Assembly: GCA_038064975.1 (NCBI GenBank)
Contig: JBBTRX010000002.1
Span: forward strand, 128,880 to 192,879
From: Patescibacteria group bacterium
GTDB taxonomy: Bacteria > Patescibacteriota > Minisyncoccia > UBA6257 > 1-14-0-10-40-38
Length of the DNA: 64,000 nt
Direction: 5' to 3'
The position numbers were made by a program, and so were the translations under genes. Position 1 is the stretch's first letter. Every line of letters begins with the position of its first letter. The notes beneath the pieces are model-generated. The model saw only the letters and a program-made list of their open reading frames with translations, was not told the DNA's origin and did no database searches. Positions 481 to 46,096 of the stretch are shown here, in pieces.

Positions 481-660
481 GGTGAGTAAAGTATTTGAAG
501 CAGATCATTCTTATAGCTTTTCAAACATTTTACGTCTAAGCGAGTCATATTGTTTCAAAAGGTCATTCTGATAGCCCTTCAAGTATTTCAAGTCCAAGCG
601 AGTCATATTGTTTGAAAGGGTCATTCTGATAGCCTTTCAAACAATATGGCGAGCGAAACC
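481..660. repeat. Three tandem ~60-bp units of intergenic palindromic repeat family R2 (conserved loop GGTCATTCTGATAGC)
   Basis: Units beginning AAGCGAGTCATATTGTTT(C/G)AAA(A/G)GGTCATTCTGATAGCC. The third unit forms a perfect 16-bp stem, catattgtttgaaagg/cctttcaaacaatatg, around the conserved loop. Confidence 0.5.
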
Positions 661-685
661 TTATCCATTGTCCATTGTTTATTGT

Positions 686-1912
686 TCATTCTTCCCGCGT
701 CTCATTAAGAGCAGAAAGTACGGTCTCTTTATCACTCCACGCAGTCTTTTCTCCCTTCGGTCCGTGAATCCACCGCTCGCTCCCCTTTCCGGTAATAATT
801 ACAGTACTTCCTCGTTTCGCGATCGTGATTGCATGACGTATCGCCTCACCACGATCTACGATTTTTAATGTTTCTACTTTTTTCCCTCCTTCGGGAACGT
901 ATCCTTGGGCAATACTTTCAATAATCGCCATAGGCGGTTCGTCATACGGATCTTCGTTCGTCGCGATAATAGTTGAACAATACGCTCCAGCAATCTTGCC
1001 GAATGCAGGGCGTTTCCATACGTCTCTTCCCCCGCCTGCGGAACCTAAGACACAAATCATTTTCTTCTTTCCATCGGGATTCAGATTTTCGTACACAGCG
1101 TGGAGGGCATCCGGGGTGTGCGCATAATCAACAATAACGCGAAACGGTTTTTCTTGAATCACTTCCATTCTGCCCGGAACTCCTTTGAACGCGAGAATTG
1201 CGGGATAGATAATGCCTTGCGGAATTCCAAATACTTCCGCAACTCTTGCCGCAGCGGATGCATCGTCCGCATTAAACGGGCGAGCAAGCCATTCGTTTTC
1301 TTTTAAGGCGCGCTGAGGAAGCTGACGAAGCAATTGCTCTCCACTGAAATAATGAACTTCACCTAAACCGTGCACGGCGCGGAGAAAAGTGTCGCGTTCC
1401 CCGTCATGCTGGTTCAAAATAAAATGTTTTGCGATTTTTTTTGAACGCGTCGCGATATCACGGAAAAATCTAACCTTCGCGTCCCGATATTTTTCATATG
1501 AACCGTGCGCCTCAATATGTTCCGGATGGAGATTTAAAAATACTCCGCAATCAAAATGGATAAATCGATGCCGGTATTGCAAAGCGCCTTGAGAAGTAAC
1601 TTCTAAAATCGCGACAGTGCACCGATCACGGACTGCATCACGTAAAAACTTTTGAATCATAAAGCGCCCGGGCATCGTGTTCTCGGTCGGGTTATCGCGT
1701 ACACTCTCCCCGATTTGCATATGAAGAGATGAAAGTGCTGCCGTCTTTTTTCCTGCCGCTTCAAAAATAGCTCGTAAAATTTCTACCGCCGTTGATTTGC
1801 CCTTCGTTCCCGTGACTCCGATAACAATGAGTCTCTTTGACGGGAAACCGTAAATAATATTGCCCAAGAACGCTAAAAGAAAATGGTACGTACGCCTTAT
1901 GAAATGCAACAT
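686..1912 (-). CDS. murE: Mur ligase family protein, MurE-like (UDP-N-acetylmuramoyl-tripeptide synthetase), N-terminally short
   Basis: P-loop GVTGTKGKST and DYAHTPDAL motif typical of MurE-type Mur ligases. Length is 408 aa. Confidence 0.6.
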   Translation of the reverse strand: MLHFIRRTYHFLLAFLGNIIYGFPSKRLIVIGVTGTKGKSTAVEILRAIFEAAGKKTAALSSLHMQIGESVRDNPTENTMPGRFMIQKFLRDAVRDRCTVAILEVTSQGALQYRHRFIHFDCGVFLNLHPEHIEAHGSYEKYRDAKVRFFRDIATRSKKIAKHFILNQHDGERDTFLRAVHGLGEVHYFSGEQLLRQLPQRALKENEWLARPFNADDASAAARVAEVFGIPQGIIYPAILAFKGVPGRMEVIQEKPFRVIVDYAHTPDALHAVYENLNPDGKKKMICVLGSAGGGRDVWKRPAFGKIAGAYCSTIIATNEDPYDEPPMAIIESIAQGYVPEGGKKVETLKIVDRGEAIRHAITIAKRGSTVIITGKGSERWIHGPKGEKTAWSDKETVLSALNETREE

Positions 1913-2428: not shown

Positions 2429-2676
2429 AGAACTCCTCCGTTCTCCCGTGCGAGGGCACGGGACTCTCGTAGTGGTGAATGCTCACGACATCACTCGAGG
2501 CGATTCACTTCCACTATTATACCCCAATCTACTATTTTTGCAAGCCCTCCTAACTTTTAGAAAGTTGGGGAGGCAAGCCCTCCCCAAAATAAAGTATTTA
2601 CAATACTCAATTTACAATTTTCAATATTCTCATCTCTTGCTTCTTATTCATCGTTTATTGTCCATTGTTTATTATT

Positions 2677-3252
2677 TTACCGCTTAGTATTTTTTAAGGC
2701 CTCACGAAGGCGAGCTTTGAATCCTTGCACCTCTTTAGGAACTCCTTGCAGAGCTTGTTTCGCGTCCGTGCGAGAATACCCTAAACTCACGAGTGTTTCT
2801 TCCAATTCCACGTCGGATTCCATAAGCGTCACCAAGTCCTGACTCTTTCCCCAATTCATTTTGCCCTTGAGTTCAAGCACGATGCGTTCGGCTGTTTTCT
2901 TTCCGATTCCGGATGCGCGTGTAATAAGCTCCGTATGCCCGTCGTTAATCGCCGCTATTAGTTGCTCAGTATTTGCGATACTCATCACACCGAGTGCGGA
3001 TTTTGGTCCCACACCGCTTACAGAATTTAATTGTTCAAAAAATTTAAGTTCCAACTCGGTTTGGAAACCAAAAAGCTGAAGAGCGTCTTCGCGAACATGA
3101 AGATGCGTAAAGAGTTTAACTTCCGATCCGGTTTCGGGAAGATTCGCGAGTGTGTGTGCGGAAATCGCGACGCGAAAACTTATGCCGCCCGTTTCAACGA
3201 CAATAAAATTCTCTCGCTTCGCCCGCAATGTGCCTTGAATACCGTAGAGCAT
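2677..3252 (-). CDS. ruvA: Holliday junction branch migration complex subunit RuvA
   Basis: 191 aa with domain I/II HhH motifs (LNSVSGVGPKSALGVMS) and the C-terminal RuvB-interaction domain. Typical RuvA length. Confidence 0.85.
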   Translation of the reverse strand: MLYGIQGTLRAKRENFIVVETGGISFRVAISAHTLANLPETGSEVKLFTHLHVREDALQLFGFQTELELKFFEQLNSVSGVGPKSALGVMSIANTEQLIAAINDGHTELITRASGIGKKTAERIVLELKGKMNWGKSQDLVTLMESDVELEETLVSLGYSRTDAKQALQGVPKEVQGFKARLREALKNTKR

Positions 3253-5644: not shown

Positions 5645-6697
5645 TTATTTTGCAAATGGATTCTTCGCGCCGTGCACTTCAAAGTGTAAGTGACAACTCG
5701 TCGGCCCGTTAGTATTTCCAGTATTTCCAACTTCAGCGATGAGCTGGCCTTTTTCAATATAATCGCCGATAGAAGCAATATTACTTTCCGTGTGCGCGTA
5801 CCGTGTGCGCGTACCGTTTGGATGTTCTATATCAACATATCCTCCATATCCCCCATTCCAATTATTAGGACTTCCCGTTTTAACAACCAATCCTTCAGCC
5901 GCGGCATAGATAGCAGTTCCACACGCGTTCGCGATATCAACCGCATTATTGGCATGGAGCTGTCCCCAATTCCATCCCGACGCTGGGAGCGTAAAGTATC
6001 CTTTCAAATCAGGAAGGTGCGCAGTCAAACTTGAACGTTCCTGCAAGCGACCTCCTGGAATAATGAGCTTCTCCCCTTCCATGATTGTTTCTGTCGCGAG
6101 CCGCGGATTTGCTTTTACAATCTCCTGCGGAGCAATGGAATAGAAGATCGCGATAGATTCAACACTTTCTCCAGCGGCAATTTCATGCAAAATGCCGGAT
6201 ACCGGAAGAATTGTGATCTCATCGCCCGGACGAATGACGTTTTTGCGCAACGTCGGATTTGCCCAGAGTAGCGTATTTAATGAAACACCATAACTTGCTC
6301 CAATATTGGAAAGCGTCTCTCCCTTCTGGACTTTATGGAGAATAATACCGTCGCGACGCGCGAAACGAGAATCCAAGGGATTTGCATGATGTACGAGTGC
6401 GGCACCGTCAAAAGCTCCGTATTCTTCGTCTTCCATAGTAAATACGTCAGCATGAACAGTATCAATCTCCGAAACCGCCTCCAGAAAGCCAAGATCATTA
6501 CTATTTTCCGAAGTTTCTTGAAGTGGTCCCCCGAAAACTGATGCTTGTGCGGAAAAAACTGCTTGCGACTCGCTTTGGAAAGCAAAGCCCAAGGTGATAA
6601 GGATAGTCCCAAAAAGGAAAACAACCGCTACTAGGGTTGTGGGATTAGCACGTTTTAGATTTTTGAGTATAGTACTAATACCCCAAAAGCATACCAT
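5645..6697 (-). CDS. LysM domain / M23 family peptidoglycan metalloendopeptidase
   Basis: N-terminal TM/signal, two LysM-like segments (KVQKGETLSNIGASYGVSLNTLLWANP; AAGESVESIAIFY), and a C-terminal M23 domain (HxxxD region GYGGYVDIEHPNGTRTRYAHTES...CHLHFEV). Start set at the internal Met to avoid overlapping pcrA. Confidence 0.8.
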   Translation of the reverse strand: MVCFWGISTILKNLKRANPTTLVAVVFLFGTILITLGFAFQSESQAVFSAQASVFGGPLQETSENSNDLGFLEAVSEIDTVHADVFTMEDEEYGAFDGAALVHHANPLDSRFARRDGIILHKVQKGETLSNIGASYGVSLNTLLWANPTLRKNVIRPGDEITILPVSGILHEIAAGESVESIAIFYSIAPQEIVKANPRLATETIMEGEKLIIPGGRLQERSSLTAHLPDLKGYFTLPASGWNWGQLHANNAVDIANACGTAIYAAAEGLVVKTGSPNNWNGGYGGYVDIEHPNGTRTRYAHTESNIASIGDYIEKGQLIAEVGNTGNTNGPTSCHLHFEVHGAKNPFAK

Positions 6698-6706
6698 GAA
6701 CCCCAA

Positions 6707-8506
6707 ATGAACCTCAACCCCAACCAAGAGAAGGCAGTAAATCACGGAGAAGGCCCACTTCTTATCGTAGCTGGCGCCGGATCCGGAAAAACAAAGACAT
6801 TAACCGCCCGTGTACTCCGACTCATTGAACGCGGCGTCCCACCGGAGGCAATTATAGCGATAACCTTTACTAACAAGGCAGCGAAAGAAATGCGCGCCCG
6901 ACTTTTCGCCCATCCAGACTTCCCTAAGAAGGTTTTTACCGCCCTTGGTCCTGCTCCATTTGTAGGAACATTTCATTCGCTAGGCGCTCGCATCCTCCGC
7001 GAGGAAGGAAAAGCGCTCGGGAGATCTGGATCATTTTCTATCTTTGATTCCGATGACGCCTTGCGCGCGCTTCGCCACACACTCAAAGATATGAATCTGG
7101 ATGATGAGCAGTATCCACCCGCACGCATCATTCGCAGTATTGAAGCCGTCAAAAATAAACTTTTAGACCCGCAGGAATATTTCGATCCAAGAAAATATCG
7201 AGTATTCGCCGCATATGAAAACTATATTGCAAAAAATAATGCATTTGATTTTGGCGACCTTATCCAAAAAGTCGTAACACTTTTTGATACAAATCCGGAA
7301 ATCAAAAAGTGCTATAACGAACGTTACACGCATATTTTAGTTGACGAGTATCAGGACGTGAATCTTGCGCAGTACCGATTAGTAAAATTACTCGCAGGAG
7401 CGCGAGGCAACGTGAGCGTCGTGGGCGACGATGCGCAAGCAATCTACGGATGGCGCCACGCCGACTTTACGAACTTCCTTAATTTTGAAAAAGATTGGCC
7501 GACCGCTTCCGTGGTGACGCTGGAAGAAAACTATCGATCAACGGAAACCATTCTCACCGCAGCAAACGCGGTTATTAAAAATAATGCATTCCAAAAGCCT
7601 AAAAATTTGTGGACGAGCAAAGCCGGCGGGCCAATGATTGTTGTTGCATCCGCCCCAAATGCCGAAGAAGAATCGTACTGGATTACCGAACAGATTATTG
7701 AAACACTCCGTGCTATCCCGCGGGCAGAGCGAACACAGGACGGGATAGCTATCCTCTACCGCACGAACGCACAGTCCAGATCAATAGAATCTGCGCTCGT
7801 TTCCGCAGGTATTCCCTACCGCATCTTCGGCGGAGTAAAATTCTATGAACGTAAGGAAATTAAAGATATTATCGCGGGGCTCCGCATAGCAGCGAACCCG
7901 AACGATCTCGTAAGCCGCGAGCGCATTGAAAAAACATTTACCAAAAAAATAGGTGCAAGCGTCATTGAAGCACTCTCCGGACAATCCCCTCGTTTGAATA
8001 TTTTGGAACTTATCACGCTTTTCCTTTCGCGCGGAAAATATTTTGAACTGCTGGAAAAAAAATTTCCCAACCTTGAAGAGCGTAAAGAAAACGTCAATGA
8101 GCTTCTCGCTGGAGCGGCAGATTTTACTGAACTTCCAGCGTTTCTTGAGCACGCATCCCTCATGCAATCGGGAGACGCGGAAAATGAAAAAGCCGCCGGA
8201 GGTGCGAGCGTAAACCTGATGACCATTCATCTTGCGAAGGGATTGGAATTTGATACGGTCTTTATCGCCGGCGCAAACGAAGGGCTCATCCCCCATCAAA
8301 TGTCCTTCAAGACACGCGAAGAAATGGAAGAAGAGCGGCGGCTTATGTATGTCGCAATGACGCGTGCAAGAAAAAATCTCCGCATCTCGTTTTTCCATAT
8401 TCCGTCCAGATTCCTCTACGAAATACCGGCAGAACTTACGGAGTATAGAGATTTAGGAGGGAGATCTGGAGGACTCCCCGAAGAAGATATTGTTTATCTA
8501 GATTAA
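6707..8506 (+). CDS. pcrA: ATP-dependent DNA helicase PcrA/UvrD family
   Basis: N-terminus MNLNPNQEKAV...LLIVAGAGSGKTKTL (helicase motif I), VDEYQD (motif II), and UvrD-family C-terminal motifs. Confidence 0.85.
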   Translation: MNLNPNQEKAVNHGEGPLLIVAGAGSGKTKTLTARVLRLIERGVPPEAIIAITFTNKAAKEMRARLFAHPDFPKKVFTALGPAPFVGTFHSLGARILREEGKALGRSGSFSIFDSDDALRALRHTLKDMNLDDEQYPPARIIRSIEAVKNKLLDPQEYFDPRKYRVFAAYENYIAKNNAFDFGDLIQKVVTLFDTNPEIKKCYNERYTHILVDEYQDVNLAQYRLVKLLAGARGNVSVVGDDAQAIYGWRHADFTNFLNFEKDWPTASVVTLEENYRSTETILTAANAVIKNNAFQKPKNLWTSKAGGPMIVVASAPNAEEESYWITEQIIETLRAIPRAERTQDGIAILYRTNAQSRSIESALVSAGIPYRIFGGVKFYERKEIKDIIAGLRIAANPNDLVSRERIEKTFTKKIGASVIEALSGQSPRLNILELITLFLSRGKYFELLEKKFPNLEERKENVNELLAGAADFTELPAFLEHASLMQSGDAENEKAAGGASVNLMTIHLAKGLEFDTVFIAGANEGLIPHQMSFKTREEMEEERRLMYVAMTRARKNLRISFFHIPSRFLYEIPAELTEYRDLGGRSGGLPEEDIVYLD

Positions 8507-43856: not shown

Positions 43857-44095
43857 GGGGTTAATAATGATTGAGGTTGATATTCGCCGAGACCTTTTTG
43901 TTGTTCTCCCATTGTACTCCTCCCAATCACTATCTGCATTGTGCATAACCTGTAGAAAAGTGAAAAAATTGACCTTTAAAATTTCTGTGTTGTATGGAGG
44001 TTCTTTTTTAAAGAAAAAACACGGACTTATGTGCATATTTTGATACTTTCTCTTGAATTTAATACATAAATTCGCTATGCTTTCCCTTACGATAA

Positions 44096-44115
44096 GCCGC
44101 GGTAGCTCAATGGTA
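44096..44115 (+). repeat. duplicate of tRNA-Phe 5' 20 nt (GCCGCGGTAGCTCAATGGTA)
   Basis: Exact 20-nt match to positions 1-20 of tRNA-Phe at 44411, located about 50 nt upstream of the GIY-YIG ORF. Confidence 0.55.
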
Positions 44116-44171
44116 CCTGCCCGACTGAACGAGGTCAGTCGTTCGGGCGGGGAGCGTCCCTTTTGCTGAAT

Positions 44172-44420
44172 ATGTATACTGTCTACGTACTTCAGGATAA
44201 AAATGATAAAATCTACAAGGGATTTACTAATAATCTTGCGCGTCGCTTGAAAGAGCATCGATCTGGAATGTCTCGAACGACCTCAAGAATGGAAGAGTTG
44301 GTGGTGGTTTATACGGAAACGTATAAGACGCTTGCTGAAGCGAGAAAAAGAGAACTCTATTTGAAATCAGCAGCTGGAAGAAGATTTCTAAAAAATAAGA
44401 TAGCAATAATGCCGCGGTAG
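44172..44420 (+). CDS. GIY-YIG nuclease family small protein
   Basis: YTVYVLQDKNDKIYKGFTNNLARRLKEHRSG is a canonical GIY-YIG motif. About 82 aa. The stop codon lies inside the 5' end of tRNA-Phe. Confidence 0.65.
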   Translation: MYTVYVLQDKNDKIYKGFTNNLARRLKEHRSGMSRTTSRMEELVVVYTETYKTLAEARKRELYLKSAAGRRFLKNKIAIMPR

Positions 44421-44482
44421 CTCAATGGTAGAGCGTCCGCCTGAAGAGCGGTAGGTTGTCAGTTCGATTCTGACCCGCGGCA
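44411..44482 (+). tRNA. tRNA-Phe (anticodon GAA)
   Basis: GCCGCGGTAGCTCAATGGTAGAGCGTCCGCCTGAAGAGCGGTAGGTTGTCAGTTCGATTCTGACCCGCGGCA. Anticodon loop CTGAAGA. Confidence 0.8.
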
Positions 44483-44554
44483 CAAGAGAAATGGACGAAA
44501 AAAATGACCTGTATTTCTCTTATGCGTGAGTTACTATATAGTAAGCAGATTTAT

Positions 44555-44629
44555 GGTGCCTGTAGCTTAATGGTAAAGCTCCGCTCTGTGGCAGCGGCGA
44601 CGTGGGTCCGATTCCCATCAGGCACCCCA
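44555..44629 (+). tRNA. tRNA-His (anticodon GTG) with G-1 and encoded CCA
   Basis: GGTGCCTGTAGCTTAATGGTAAAGCTCCGCTCTGTGGCAGCGGCGACGTGGGTCCGATTCCCATCAGGCACCCCA. Acceptor stem GTGCCTG/CAGGCAC with an extra 5' G. Confidence 0.8.
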
Positions 44630-46096
44630 TTTGTGAGTTTCGTGCGCTTTTATGATCCCAGCGAACACAGGTTTCATTGTAAATACTGGCGTTCTCGCAT
44701 TTAGTACCGAGTTCTGAAGTACGAAATTCAAAAATACTCGTTTTTCCTGCGGTTCAGAACTTTCGAAGATTTCAAAAGCGCGCTTACAAATATCAAGCAA
44801 TCTGCTCGCTGTAAGGTGATATTCCTTATCTGCTGAGCTATGTTCTTGCATCTGCTGTAATAAATCTGCCTGTTTCGCTTTATACTCTTTCAATTTCTTG
44901 TCGTACATTTCGGGAGTAATACTGCCATCGTACTTGTCATCAGTCATTTTGCTGATCCGGCTCTCTATGCGGTCATACTCCGTTTTAAGACCGTCCATCG
45001 CGTTACTGTGAAATTCTTGCTCGGCTTCAGTGCTTACGCGTAAGCCACTTACTACGTAGTCAATTCCCTCTTTCGGCAGTCTAAGCTTCTTTATATGGGC
45101 GTAAATGGGCTTTAATAGTTCTTCTTCGGGTACATAGAGTTTTTGGCACTTACCTCGGTAGTTGGTGCAGTGATAGTAGATATACTTACCCTTGCTGATT
45201 TCTGGTGTAATAGTGCAACCGCATACGCCGCATGTCATAAGCCCTCGGAAAATGAAGGGCTTAGCGGCATGCTGAAACGGCTTCTTATTCCAGCTCTCAC
45301 AAACTTTTTGACATTTCAAGAAGAGACTCATCGAAATAAGTGACTCATAATGGTGCGGGTACTGTTTACCTTTCACATCCATCACGCCGTAGTAGAATCG
45401 AGTTTTGAGGATCATGGCGAGTCTACTCATGGCAATCGGGTTGCCATTCCTACTCCCTTTAAATCCTTCTTCTCTCATTCGCTTTGATAGCGTGATTAGC
45501 GAAAAGTTGCCGGTTGAATAGAGTTCGAAAGCTTTAATAACAAATGGTGCTGTTTTTGGATCAACTTCAATCGCTGATTTGTTCTCACTGGTTCTCGTGT
45601 TCAAGTATCCAATCGGGGCTTTAGCAATCCATTCGCCGTTTTTTAATTTCTGTTCATTGCTACGTTTCACGTTGTCGCTCAATTGCAAAACATAGCTGCG
45701 AGCAAACATAACGGCCATATCCCATTGCAAAAGCTGTGAGCTGTTGGCACTTGCCGTTAAAACCAAATTTTCTCGCACAAAGTGAATTTCGATTTTGCCT
45801 TGTTTTCGTAAATCATCTAAAACCACGCTTTCTTTAAAACTTCTTTGAAGGCGATCTACAGTTTCAACCACAAGGGCAATCGGTTCGCCGAATTTTGATT
45901 GCTTAATAACATCTAGGACTGCTTCAAATTTCTTTCGGCTATCCGTTGTCGAACTTTCTGCTATCTCAAAGACTTTCCAAAAATCGAGTTCTCTTTTCTC
46001 GACATATTCGGTAAGTCGCCTTGTTTGCGCTGATATGGATTGGCCCTCTTCGGCTTGTTCCTTTGTTGAAACTCTGGAAAGAATTATCGCCTTCAT
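44618..46096 (-). CDS. large serine recombinase (resolvase/invertase N-terminal domain plus recombinase and zinc-ribbon domains)
   Basis: N-terminal catalytic ILSRVSTKEQ (Ser nucleophile), a central recombinase domain and a C-terminal Cys cluster (CGVCGC...HC). 492 aa. Confidence 0.8.
   Translation of the reverse strand: MKAIILSRVSTKEQAEEGQSISAQTRRLTEYVEKRELDFWKVFEIAESSTTDSRKKFEAVLDVIKQSKFGEPIALVVETVDRLQRSFKESVVLDDLRKQGKIEIHFVRENLVLTASANSSQLLQWDMAVMFARSYVLQLSDNVKRSNEQKLKNGEWIAKAPIGYLNTRTSENKSAIEVDPKTAPFVIKAFELYSTGNFSLITLSKRMREEGFKGSRNGNPIAMSRLAMILKTRFYYGVMDVKGKQYPHHYESLISMSLFLKCQKVCESWNKKPFQHAAKPFIFRGLMTCGVCGCTITPEISKGKYIYYHCTNYRGKCQKLYVPEEELLKPIYAHIKKLRLPKEGIDYVVSGLRVSTEAEQEFHSNAMDGLKTEYDRIESRISKMTDDKYDGSITPEMYDKKLKEYKAKQADLLQQMQEHSSADKEYHLTASRLLDICKRAFEIFESSEPQEKRVFLNFVLQNSVLNARTPVFTMKPVFAGIIKAHETHKWGA

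Follow-up and report, generated by a model that had tools for sequence, protein, structure and literature searches.

Small GIY-YIG nuclease genes between a palindrome-split tRNA fragment and an intact tRNA gene in Patescibacteria

In a stretch of 64,000 nucleotides (the window, taken at its full length) from a genome of the Patescibacteria (candidate phyla radiation), obtained in a Hainich groundwater assembly, a small open reading frame (ORF) for a single-domain GIY-YIG protein stands directly in front of an intact tRNA-Phe gene and overlaps its first nucleotides. The 5' part of this tRNA gene is found a second time upstream of the ORF, where it is split by a GC-rich palindrome. The same layout recurs at tRNA genes of many other Patescibacteria, and the window element is a typical, ordinary member of its family. 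From the sequence comparisons we favour, with some caution, the reading that the segment is a homing-type selfish cassette which would rebuild the tRNA that it invades; nuclease activity, target and mobility of the element are presumed throughout.

The tRNA-Phe locus of the window and its GIY-YIG gene

A first-pass annotation, made from the letters of the window, had pointed to an exact 20-nt repeat of the tRNA-Phe 5' end in front of the ORF, and this repeat was confirmed. GCCGCGGTAGCTCAATGGTA has two exact occurrences in the window, of which one forms positions 1-20 of tRNA-Phe(GAA) and the other precedes the ORF (Table 1), and in none of 100 dinucleotide-preserving shuffles was a match obtained, even when 3 mismatches were allowed. 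However, the description of the repeat as a clean 20-bp target-site footprint could not be kept, as the upstream copy extends past the 20-mer: behind the palindrome it continues with GAGCGTCC, which equals tRNA-Phe positions 21-28. When the palindrome is spliced out, the alignment shows positions 1-28 of tRNA-Phe with 28/28 identity and a single 36-nt insertion. This copy ends 12 nt 5' of the ATG, and the CTGAA within the spacer, just 5' of the ATG, is possibly a degenerate remnant of the anticodon loop.

The ORF starts with this ATG and encodes 82 amino acids (aa), or 85 aa if TTG at 44163 is taken as start. It ends within the first nucleotides of tRNA-Phe, as had been noted before: the stop codon TAG (44418-44420) is T8-A9-G10 of the tRNA, both genes overlap by 10 nt, and the last ORF codons together with the stop are supplied by these first 10 nt. 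The tRNA-Phe gene itself was called intact from the beginning, and ARAGORN and Rfam agree with this. It is also uninterrupted, with no Intron_gpI match between 43800 and 44800 (E up to 10), a region in which Rfam returned two tRNAs only and no ribozyme or other RNA family. Folded as single-stranded DNA, the palindrome reaches -11.5 kcal/mol (z = -3.4). No second copy of the palindrome or of the ORF was found elsewhere within the 64 kb of the window.

The candidate promoter in front of the displaced fragment scores 8/12, which is under the scan threshold, and the single match of the promoter scan is TAGAAA-18-TAAAAT at 43953-43982. Between 44145 and 44170 there is a small hairpin made up of the palindrome's 3' arm and GAGCGTCC, with CTTTTG behind it; this hairpin was flagged by a terminator scan and may act as an attenuator between fragment and ORF. 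The open frame of the window extends back to 44106, through the palindrome and the tRNA fragment. Gene callers often extend ORFs of this family upstream in the same way (P0020, P0038 and many representatives of 105-118 aa), which creates spurious N-terminal peptides such as ...VAQSV...SGGEQRPF.

Table 1. Coordinates of the window element and of related features at other loci (RNR, class II ribonucleotide reductase)
Locus	Feature	Position	Strand	Remarks
window	displaced tRNA-Phe positions 1-20 (acceptor 5' strand, D-stem 5' strand, D-loop)	44096..44115	+	exact 20/20 match to 44411-44430
window	36-nt GC-rich imperfect palindrome CCTGCCCGACTGAACGAGGTCAGTCGTTCGGGCGGG	44116..44151	+	between D-loop A20 and G21, TA/G site just 5' of the D-stem 3' strand
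window	displaced tRNA-Phe copy continued, positions 21-28, GAGCGTCC	44152..44159	+	spliced alignment
window	12-nt spacer CTTTTGCTGAAT	44160..44171	+	without Shine-Dalgarno motif; read from sequence
window	single-domain GIY-YIG nuclease gene (predicted), 82 aa	44172..44420	+	Pfam PF01541
window	intact tRNA-Phe(GAA)	44411..44483	+	ARAGORN; Rfam RF00005, 72.6 bits
window	weak candidate promoter TTGAAT-17 nt-TATGCT	44053..44081	+	15 nt upstream of displaced fragment; read from sequence
window	occupied tRNA-Phe site			distance of 240 nt from RNR start codon to the displaced fragment, not to the intact tRNA
L082	empty tRNA-Phe site			RNR, 215 nt, intact tRNA-Phe, 79 nt, tRNA-His; without ORF, fragment and palindrome; RNR 74% identical
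L085	tRNA-Phe site occupied by other GIY-YIG subfamily (about 96 aa)			palindrome CCTCCGG...CTGGAGG; ORF stop again T8A9G10
L084	tRNA-Phe with group I intron after the anticodon			first 20 nt as in the window
L085	ARAGORN slip	6534-6606		really tRNA-Arg(TCT) or tRNA-Lys(TTT), as for the next two rows
L086	ARAGORN slip	2705-2777
L045	ARAGORN slip	2230-2307
L101	in-frame palindrome in housekeeping gene	7841-7876		metagenome contig
L162	in-frame palindrome in housekeeping gene	2628-2660		metagenome contig
L188	in-frame palindrome in housekeeping gene	2491-2520		metagenome contig
L165	in-frame palindrome in housekeeping gene	1301-1336		metagenome contig
L170	in-frame palindrome in housekeeping gene	2940-2975		metagenome contig

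The encoded protein matches Pfam GIY-YIG (PF01541) over residues 1-70 with 50.1 bits at a cut-off of 22.6 (E 3.5e-13). Across 30 homologs Y5, Y15-K16-G17, R24/R25, E28-H29 and E61 are invariant, i.e., the residues of the catalytic motif including the metal-binding glutamate. The AlphaFold2 model (mean predicted local distance difference test score, pLDDT, 86) has the order strand-strand-helix-helix-strand-helix-helix of the GIY-YIG core fold. In a profile search of PDB sequences the UPF0213 proteins 1ywl (1.5e-8) and 1zg2 (6.3e-7) were found before SLX1 (0.025), and the Foldseek ranking agrees, with UPF0213 (EF2693, BH0048) followed by Slx1 (6seh_C; TMq 0.63, root mean square deviation 2.5 A, 70 residues) and the N-terminal domain of UvrC, the small size of the protein limiting the E-values to 1e-3 to 1e-1. 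The NCBIfam model of group I intron endonucleases gave only 16.5 bits at a cut-off of 56. By sequence and modelled fold the nearest relatives belong to the UPF0213/Slx1 branch rather than to I-TevI/Seg or UvrC. For nine homolog pairs with measurable synonymous divergence (dS) the dN/dS ratio is 0.04-0.17, the ORF being under purifying selection. An endonuclease activity of the 82-aa protein is predicted.

Layout at tRNA genes and palindromes across the family

Hundreds of relatives of the ORF were found, about 79 aa in length and 60-76% identical, and all those with a named source come from Patescibacteria. At E ≤ 1e-3 the profile search yielded 12,825 cluster representatives; the stricter limit of E ≤ 1e-10 left 1,644 (50%-identity clusters), a number which makes the family very abundant in this group. 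In the viral contigs of IMG/VR no relative was found, and the current annotation of the family is only 'GIY-YIG nuclease family protein'.

The surroundings of the ORF were compared in 81 loci (numbered with L), comprising the window and 80 contigs from species-representative genomes of Patescibacteria. The ORF is found beside other tRNA genes as well: an intact tRNA on the same strand follows directly 3' of the ORF in 75 of the 81 loci, and most of the six others are truncated by the end of a contig or by stretches of N. About ten isotypes are represented behind the ORF, namely Ala, Thr, Phe, Val, Asp, Ile, Arg, Met, His and Lys. Nearly all loci have 7-21 nt between the conserved ...GRRFLK codon and the first tRNA position; the commonest spacing is 8, additional peaks lie at 11 and 14, and the steps are of 3, as a result of which the frame ends at T8A9G10 in 47 of about 70 loci. 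With this variation a nucleotide-exact junction between ORF and tRNA was rejected; the junction is tight, not fixed. A suppressor tRNA that would read the TAG of the ORF was rejected as well, as the 'tRNA-Pyl(cta)' of L085 and L086 and the 'tRNA-Stop(tta)' of L045 are one-base register slips of ARAGORN (Table 1).

Upstream of the ATG a clean 5' fragment of the same tRNA is present in 61 of the 81 loci. These fragments start at tRNA position 1-3, end at position 15-44 and lie a median of 7 nt before the ATG; 33 of them are 100% identical to their tRNA, also in the acceptor stem, which is specific to the tRNA, and often in the anticodon. An independent degenerate tRNA pseudogene, which could have explained the upstream 20-mer in the window, does not agree with this family-wide link between fragment and ORF, and relatives do not always carry the ORF without the duplicate but usually together with it. 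Every one of the 61 fragments contains at least one GC-rich palindrome of the CCCGCCCG...CGGGCGGG type (median 36 nt), the family to which the window palindrome belongs, so that the earlier description of an element carrying nothing besides the nuclease gene is incomplete. The insertion is precise and the tRNA sequence is restored when the palindrome is removed. Palindromes are inserted after raw position 9 (11 cases), 11-14 (7), 20-22 (39) or 35 (1). The two main sites are TA/G steps directly 5' of the two D-stem strands and thus stem-loop junctions, and both palindrome orientations were found at every insertion site.

Multiple copies of the ORF exist in several of the genomes, which are of roughly 1 Mb, and in one case (L008 and L047) they lie on one contig. 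Two ORF copies carry in-frame stops (L047, L055), and the ORF tree matches the tRNA isotype only partly.

On its left side the window element is flanked by a divergently transcribed class II ribonucleotide reductase (RNR) gene, whose nearest relatives are 73-74% identical, with synteny kept. Among these loci a difference in presence and absence was found: L082 is syntenic and its tRNA-Phe site is empty (Table 1). In L085 the site is occupied by an ORF of another GIY-YIG subfamily, and in L084 by a group I intron. The tRNA-Phe site is therefore a hot spot with three different occupants, i.e., the window ORF, the L085 ORF and the L084 intron. The latter (536-764, minus strand, about 230 nt; RNR 74%) matches Rfam Intron_gpI with 49.7 bits at a gathering score of 50 (E 6e-12). 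In L056 the gap between tRNA-Met and tRNA-Asp is too short for an ORF, which lies between these tRNAs in L018, L059, L063 and L081. By comparison with the empty site the displaced fragment of the window marks the ancestral tRNA start. The element lies at the 5' side of the gene, as described in the first-pass annotation, but its geometry agrees better with a displaced old 5' end, located at the tRNA start of the empty site, than with a simple insertion upstream of the gene.

In some loci more than a 5' part has been exchanged or added. In L070 the resident tRNA-Thr (acceptor GCCGCCT...AGGCGGC) is split, with its 5' part before the ORF; after the ORF follow a complete, different tRNA-Thr (GCCAGAA...) and then the resident 3' part with the same palindrome. 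Palindrome-bearing 3' remains of a second tRNA, starting at position 10-15, stand behind the intact one in L002, L020, L028, L049, L023 and L064, and in L075 the order is reversed to intact tRNA, ORF and disrupted copy. The acceptor stem of the fragment differs from that of the functional tRNA in L023, L024, L026, L037, L052, L067, L070 and L072. From the split residents and the mismatched acceptor stems it follows that the unit can be the ORF plus a whole foreign-allele tRNA inside the resident tRNA of the same isotype; such cassettes with a complete tRNA are seen in L070, L002, L020, L028, L049 and L023. Both the mismatched stems and the whole-tRNA cassettes would be consistent with what a foreign allele leaves after co-conversion. 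A target-site duplication with clean staggered cuts could not be supported, as the fragment ends vary from 15 to 44 and some loci carry whole foreign tRNAs. Dead tRNA copies can also accumulate: L064 (2300-2710) contains tRNA-Ala units with palindromes, arranged in tandem and interspersed with assembly gaps, L049 (2303-2470) a single tRNA-Thr remnant with three palindromes in D-loop, anticodon loop and T-arm, and L058 (2230-2365) a full-length tRNA-Ile copy with two palindromes beside the intact tRNA-Ile.

The palindromes are very strongly concentrated in such dead tRNA copies beside the GIY-YIG ORF. In 80 loci 98 palindromes were located at about -400 to +700 nt from the ORF start and none in the remaining ±2-kb flanks. 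An identical 32-mer is reused beside ORFs of about 60-65% identity. In the orthologous loci L011 and L054 (1948-1984 in both) the palindromes occupy one and the same site in the D-loop of tRNA-Val, about 54 nt before the ORF begins, and are exact reverse complements of each other. Palindromes are also nested in each other's apical loops (L012, L041, L070) and elsewhere sit at the tips of longer hairpins (L142, L147, L152, L173, L184). In a metagenome scan the palindrome was detected on at least 120 contigs, with the ORF nearby on only about 12 among the matches listed. Among these listed matches, 29 of 74 palindrome copies without a nearby ORF fall in open frames of at least 200 aa. In-frame copies were found as PARLNDISRSGG in a RecG-like helicase and as PARTEAARSGG in a UvrD-like helicase, and also in PurL, trigger factor and PaaZ-like genes, these host genes being identified from their translated sequences; the lengths of in-gene palindromes are mostly multiples of three. 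By its dispersal the palindrome is a mobile repeat family of its own, similar to Rickettsia palindromic elements. For in-frame palindromes in housekeeping genes no description was found in the searchable literature.

Comparison of pairs of loci shows how strongly this part is conserved. The ORFs of L008 and L015 have diverged to a dS of 0.85, yet fragment, palindrome and spacer are identical at 63 of 64 positions, and the leader just upstream is unalignable. In L005 and L032 (ORF dS 1.13) about 75 of 80 nt of fragment and palindrome are identical. Within one metagenome-assembled genome (CAYXNZ01) L031 (about 395-670) and L062 (about 782-1057) share a 275-nt block with 100% identity, which spans the D-loop end, palindrome, spacer and about 70 ORF codons, whereas the outer flanks and the tRNAs (Val GAC and TAC) differ. 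The block indicates a recent gene conversion between element copies, in which the palindrome was taken along with the ORF. A fresh transposition between the two tRNA-Val genes was rejected; because the identical block stops inside the 3' end of the ORF, the conversion took place between pre-existing copies.

A second small GIY-YIG subfamily (YVYLLQS...GFYIGQTDD, at least 5 proteins) shows the order ORF then tRNA at tRNA-Phe, tRNA-Asp and tRNA-Ser (L085, 3457-3800, minus strand; L209; L210). Its ORF in L085 is accompanied by the palindrome CCTCCGGCCCGGAAGGCCTCTGGCCTGGAGG. In L207 (1430-1860) an ORF of this subfamily is found without a tRNA and with CTCGGAGAG..CTCTG..CTCGGAGAGG repeats on both sides.

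On the right side of the window element tRNA-His, a large serine recombinase gene and a low-GC island follow in this order. The recombinase gene (44618-46096, minus strand) shares 12 nt with the 3' end of tRNA-His, and past it, to about 56000, helicase-like, type III restriction-modification methylase, helix-turn-helix (HTH) and other genes are located at a GC of 0.33-0.38. The region from 44618 to about 56000 is probably an island integrated at tRNA-His.

Proposed working of the element and rival explanations

If the segment is a homing-type selfish cassette, it might work as follows. The nuclease would cut tRNA genes that lack the ORF, probably in the D-arm region, because the resident remains break at positions 10-15 and the palindromes sit at 9/10 and 21/22. 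Recombinational repair from an occupied copy would then bring in the ORF with a fresh 5' part of the tRNA, or with the whole tRNA in some loci. In this way the essential tRNA would be restored behind the ORF, with the old 5' end remaining beside the old promoter. Because this old end keeps its place at the promoter, read-through from the tRNA promoter would transcribe the ORF, which is probably expressed in this way, and RNase P would free the tRNA. The element would borrow the promoter and even the stop codon of the tRNA. The palindrome breaks up the direct repeat, which would block deletion of the ORF by repeat recombination, or re-cutting of the fragment, or both. Residence in an essential tRNA gene would make imprecise loss lethal, as with introns and inteins, with the gene being restored by duplication and not by splicing. 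The element is probably selfish. The tiny selfish element at the 5' side of the tRNA, as proposed in the first-pass annotation, thus gained support from the 75 loci with an adjoining tRNA, the 61 same-tRNA fragments and the empty L082, whereas homing itself is inferred.

Several points weigh against such a cassette. The protein of 79-82 aa is a catalytic domain alone, without a DNA-binding module, and in known GIY-YIG homing enzymes it is a DNA-binding domain which reads the long (12-40 bp) target sites. The occupied allele keeps an intact tRNA and thus a potential target, which leaves immunity to self-cleavage unexplained. Simple double-strand-break repair would not explain how a new isotype is reached while the acceptor stems still match, and the cleavage site as well as gene conversion into empty sites are presumed steps. 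The empty site is known only from a distant relative, L082, and in the source population no presence/absence polymorphism was found, the element being present on 4 of 4 contigs; an 885-aa RNR gene call sits on the same four contigs as the ORF. The conservation of fragment and palindrome suggests a sequence-specific function, which a simple left-over footprint would not predict. Finally, the palindrome family is dispersed elsewhere too and may be an independent element, not a part of the cassette.

One rival explanation is in our view the most serious, although clearly less probable than the homing-type cassette. Here an Slx1-like structure-specific GIY-YIG nuclease would mobilise the palindromes in a RAYT/REP-like manner by cutting at stem-loop junctions of extruded hairpin or cloverleaf DNA, for which tRNA genes would be the best substrates. 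ORF, palindromes and tRNA duplications would then be products of the nuclease activity and not of sequence-specific homing. The position of the palindromes at stem-loop junctions, also in anticodon loops, their nesting in apical loops and their place on the tips of longer hairpins speak for such an enzyme, and the protein has its nearest fold relatives in Slx1 and UPF0213 and no DNA-binding domain. In addition, palindromes are present in 61/61 fragments and absent from the rest of the ±2-kb flanks, more than about 700 nt away from the ORF, they are conserved across ORFs that are only 60-65% identical, they are flipped in situ between L011 and L054, and a different ORF subfamily goes with a different palindrome type (L085, L207). 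However, this pairing of subfamily and palindrome type is based on two loci, the ORF is near only about 12 of at least 120 palindrome-bearing metagenome contigs, and some of the palindrome host genes (PurL, PaaZ-like) are unusual for Patescibacteria. Furthermore, no strand-transfer chemistry is known for GIY-YIG enzymes.

A bolder version, which we regard as somewhat more doubtful still, is that the 80-aa GIY-YIG protein and the palindromes form a new mobile system that drives the insertion of its own gene and of the palindromes. Its targets would be found by nucleic-acid structure, i.e., stem-loop junctions, or by a co-transcribed RNA of fragment and hairpin, which we rate equally doubtful. 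If this were true, the protein would be the mobilising enzyme of repeats resembling Rickettsia palindromic elements (RPE) that also enter housekeeping genes in frame.

It is unlikely that the ORF belongs to the ordinary genes of the host, as a small repair nuclease of the UPF0213 type residing in tRNA operons, with fragments that arose by local duplication or replication slippage provoked by independently invading palindromes. UPF0213 homologs are common as stand-alone genes, the purifying selection on the ORF is strong, the palindromes can be seen as an independent dispersed family, and the source population shows no polymorphism, all of which would suit a host gene. Yet the ORF always lies exactly between fragment and intact tRNA, with about ten isotypes, and several copies per roughly 1-Mb genome, decayed copies and whole-tRNA cassettes of foreign alleles would not be expected. 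The empty syntenic site and the three different occupants of one tRNA-Phe site also speak against it.

Even less probable is a functional RNA formed by fragment and hairpin. This could be a switch in the 5' untranslated region, in which the acceptor strand of the fragment competes with the 5' strand of the tRNA and decides between release by RNase P and translation of the ORF, or, at the same low probability, a guide-like RNA in which a constant hairpin is joined to a flank that varies with the tRNA it derives from, and which would lead the nuclease to tRNA genes. Such a combination of a constant hairpin and varying flanks that match the tRNA is indeed found between the presumed promoter and the ORF, with which it would be co-transcribed if the read-through is real, and in some pairs fragment and hairpin are far more conserved than the synonymous sites of the ORF. 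An RNase P cut at tRNA position 1 would moreover remove the last three sense codons and the stop of the ORF. However, where the acceptor stems differ, e.g., in L023, the fragment cannot pair with the tRNA 3' strand, position and number of the palindromes vary among loci, the same palindromes occur inside protein-coding genes, and RNA-guided GIY-YIG enzymes are without precedent.

An att-type duplication of the 20-mer by the large serine recombinase, which lies 200 nt downstream and adjoins tRNA-His together with the low-GC island, has practically no chance and is effectively refuted by geometry and by the family-wide pattern, as the repeat encloses only a 295-bp ORF segment, the recombinase lies outside, beyond tRNA-His and on the other strand, and the order of fragment, ORF and tRNA is seen in 61 loci where no link to a recombinase was noticed (recombinase presence was not surveyed).

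Comparison with known systems

For the layout of fragment, palindrome, ORF and tRNA in Patescibacteria no description was found in the searchable literature, and a paper on the same aquifer (Hainich) mentions GIY-YIG proteins only as transferred genes. The family of GIY-YIG mini-elements resident in tRNA genes is apparently undescribed. Its fragments and palindromes have to be considered in tRNA annotation and in the assembly of Patescibacteria genomes, and the family raises the mechanistic question how an 80-aa core without a DNA-binding domain is tied to tRNA genes and to one conserved palindrome.

The free-standing GIY-YIG homing endonuclease SegB of phage T4 (221 aa, 666-bp ORF) is encoded in the T4 tRNA gene cluster and has a 27-bp site (PMC2330249). 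SegB is directed at a conserved tRNA motif inside tRNA genes and therefore reaches many tRNA species; flanking tRNA genes are co-inherited (PMC2330249). Both nuclease genes are thus located among or next to tRNA genes. In difference to the element described here, SegB is phage-borne and lies between genes, with no duplication of the target and no overlap with a tRNA, whereas the Patescibacteria element is chromosomal and consists of an 80-aa core which overlaps the tRNA 5' end, a displaced tRNA fragment and always a palindrome.

A shared logic is seen in the replacement of gene ends by free-standing mitochondrial GIY-YIG ORFs. In Allomyces macrogynus (atp6/ORF360), Paquin and colleagues are said to have described in 1994 a mitochondrial GIY-YIG ORF that carries a replacement gene end. 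There too a nuclease ORF would come with part of the invaded gene, the gene remaining functional and the displaced end becoming a pseudogene fragment. Unlike here, this concerns the 3' end of a protein-coding organelle gene and not the 5' end of a bacterial tRNA gene, and the overlap of ORF and tRNA and the fragment split by a palindrome set the present element apart.

On the protein level the UPF0213 proteins (EF2693, BH0048, YhbQ-like) have the same single-domain GIY-YIG architecture but no known link to tRNA genes or mobility, and Slx1 differs by its RING domain and its need for Slx4. Integrative islands that target tRNA genes by means of tyrosine or serine recombinases compensate their insertion with a carried tRNA segment, and a direct repeat flanks the element. 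In contrast to the 315-bp element at a tRNA 5' end, they encode a recombinase and usually duplicate the 3' end; between the repeats of the window there is only the GIY-YIG ORF and no recombinase, the serine recombinase gene being located outside.

Rickettsia palindromic elements and REP/RAYT systems likewise consist of short palindromic repeats that are dispersed and can sit in frame in housekeeping genes. The palindromes found here belong to another sequence family with much shorter units (26-65 nt), and they stand beside a GIY-YIG gene and without an HUH transposase. They offer a handle on an RPE-like family that enters tRNA fragments and, in frame, housekeeping genes.

Group I introns in the anticodon loops of bacterial tRNAs, as seen in L084, are likewise mobile elements that reside in a tRNA gene without killing it. 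They do so by splicing with a ribozyme, whereas the window element has no ribozyme and the tRNA is restored by duplication. If the working inferred above is true, the GIY-YIG mini-elements would add to the ways in which a selfish nuclease gene can inhabit an essential gene, here by duplication instead of splicing.

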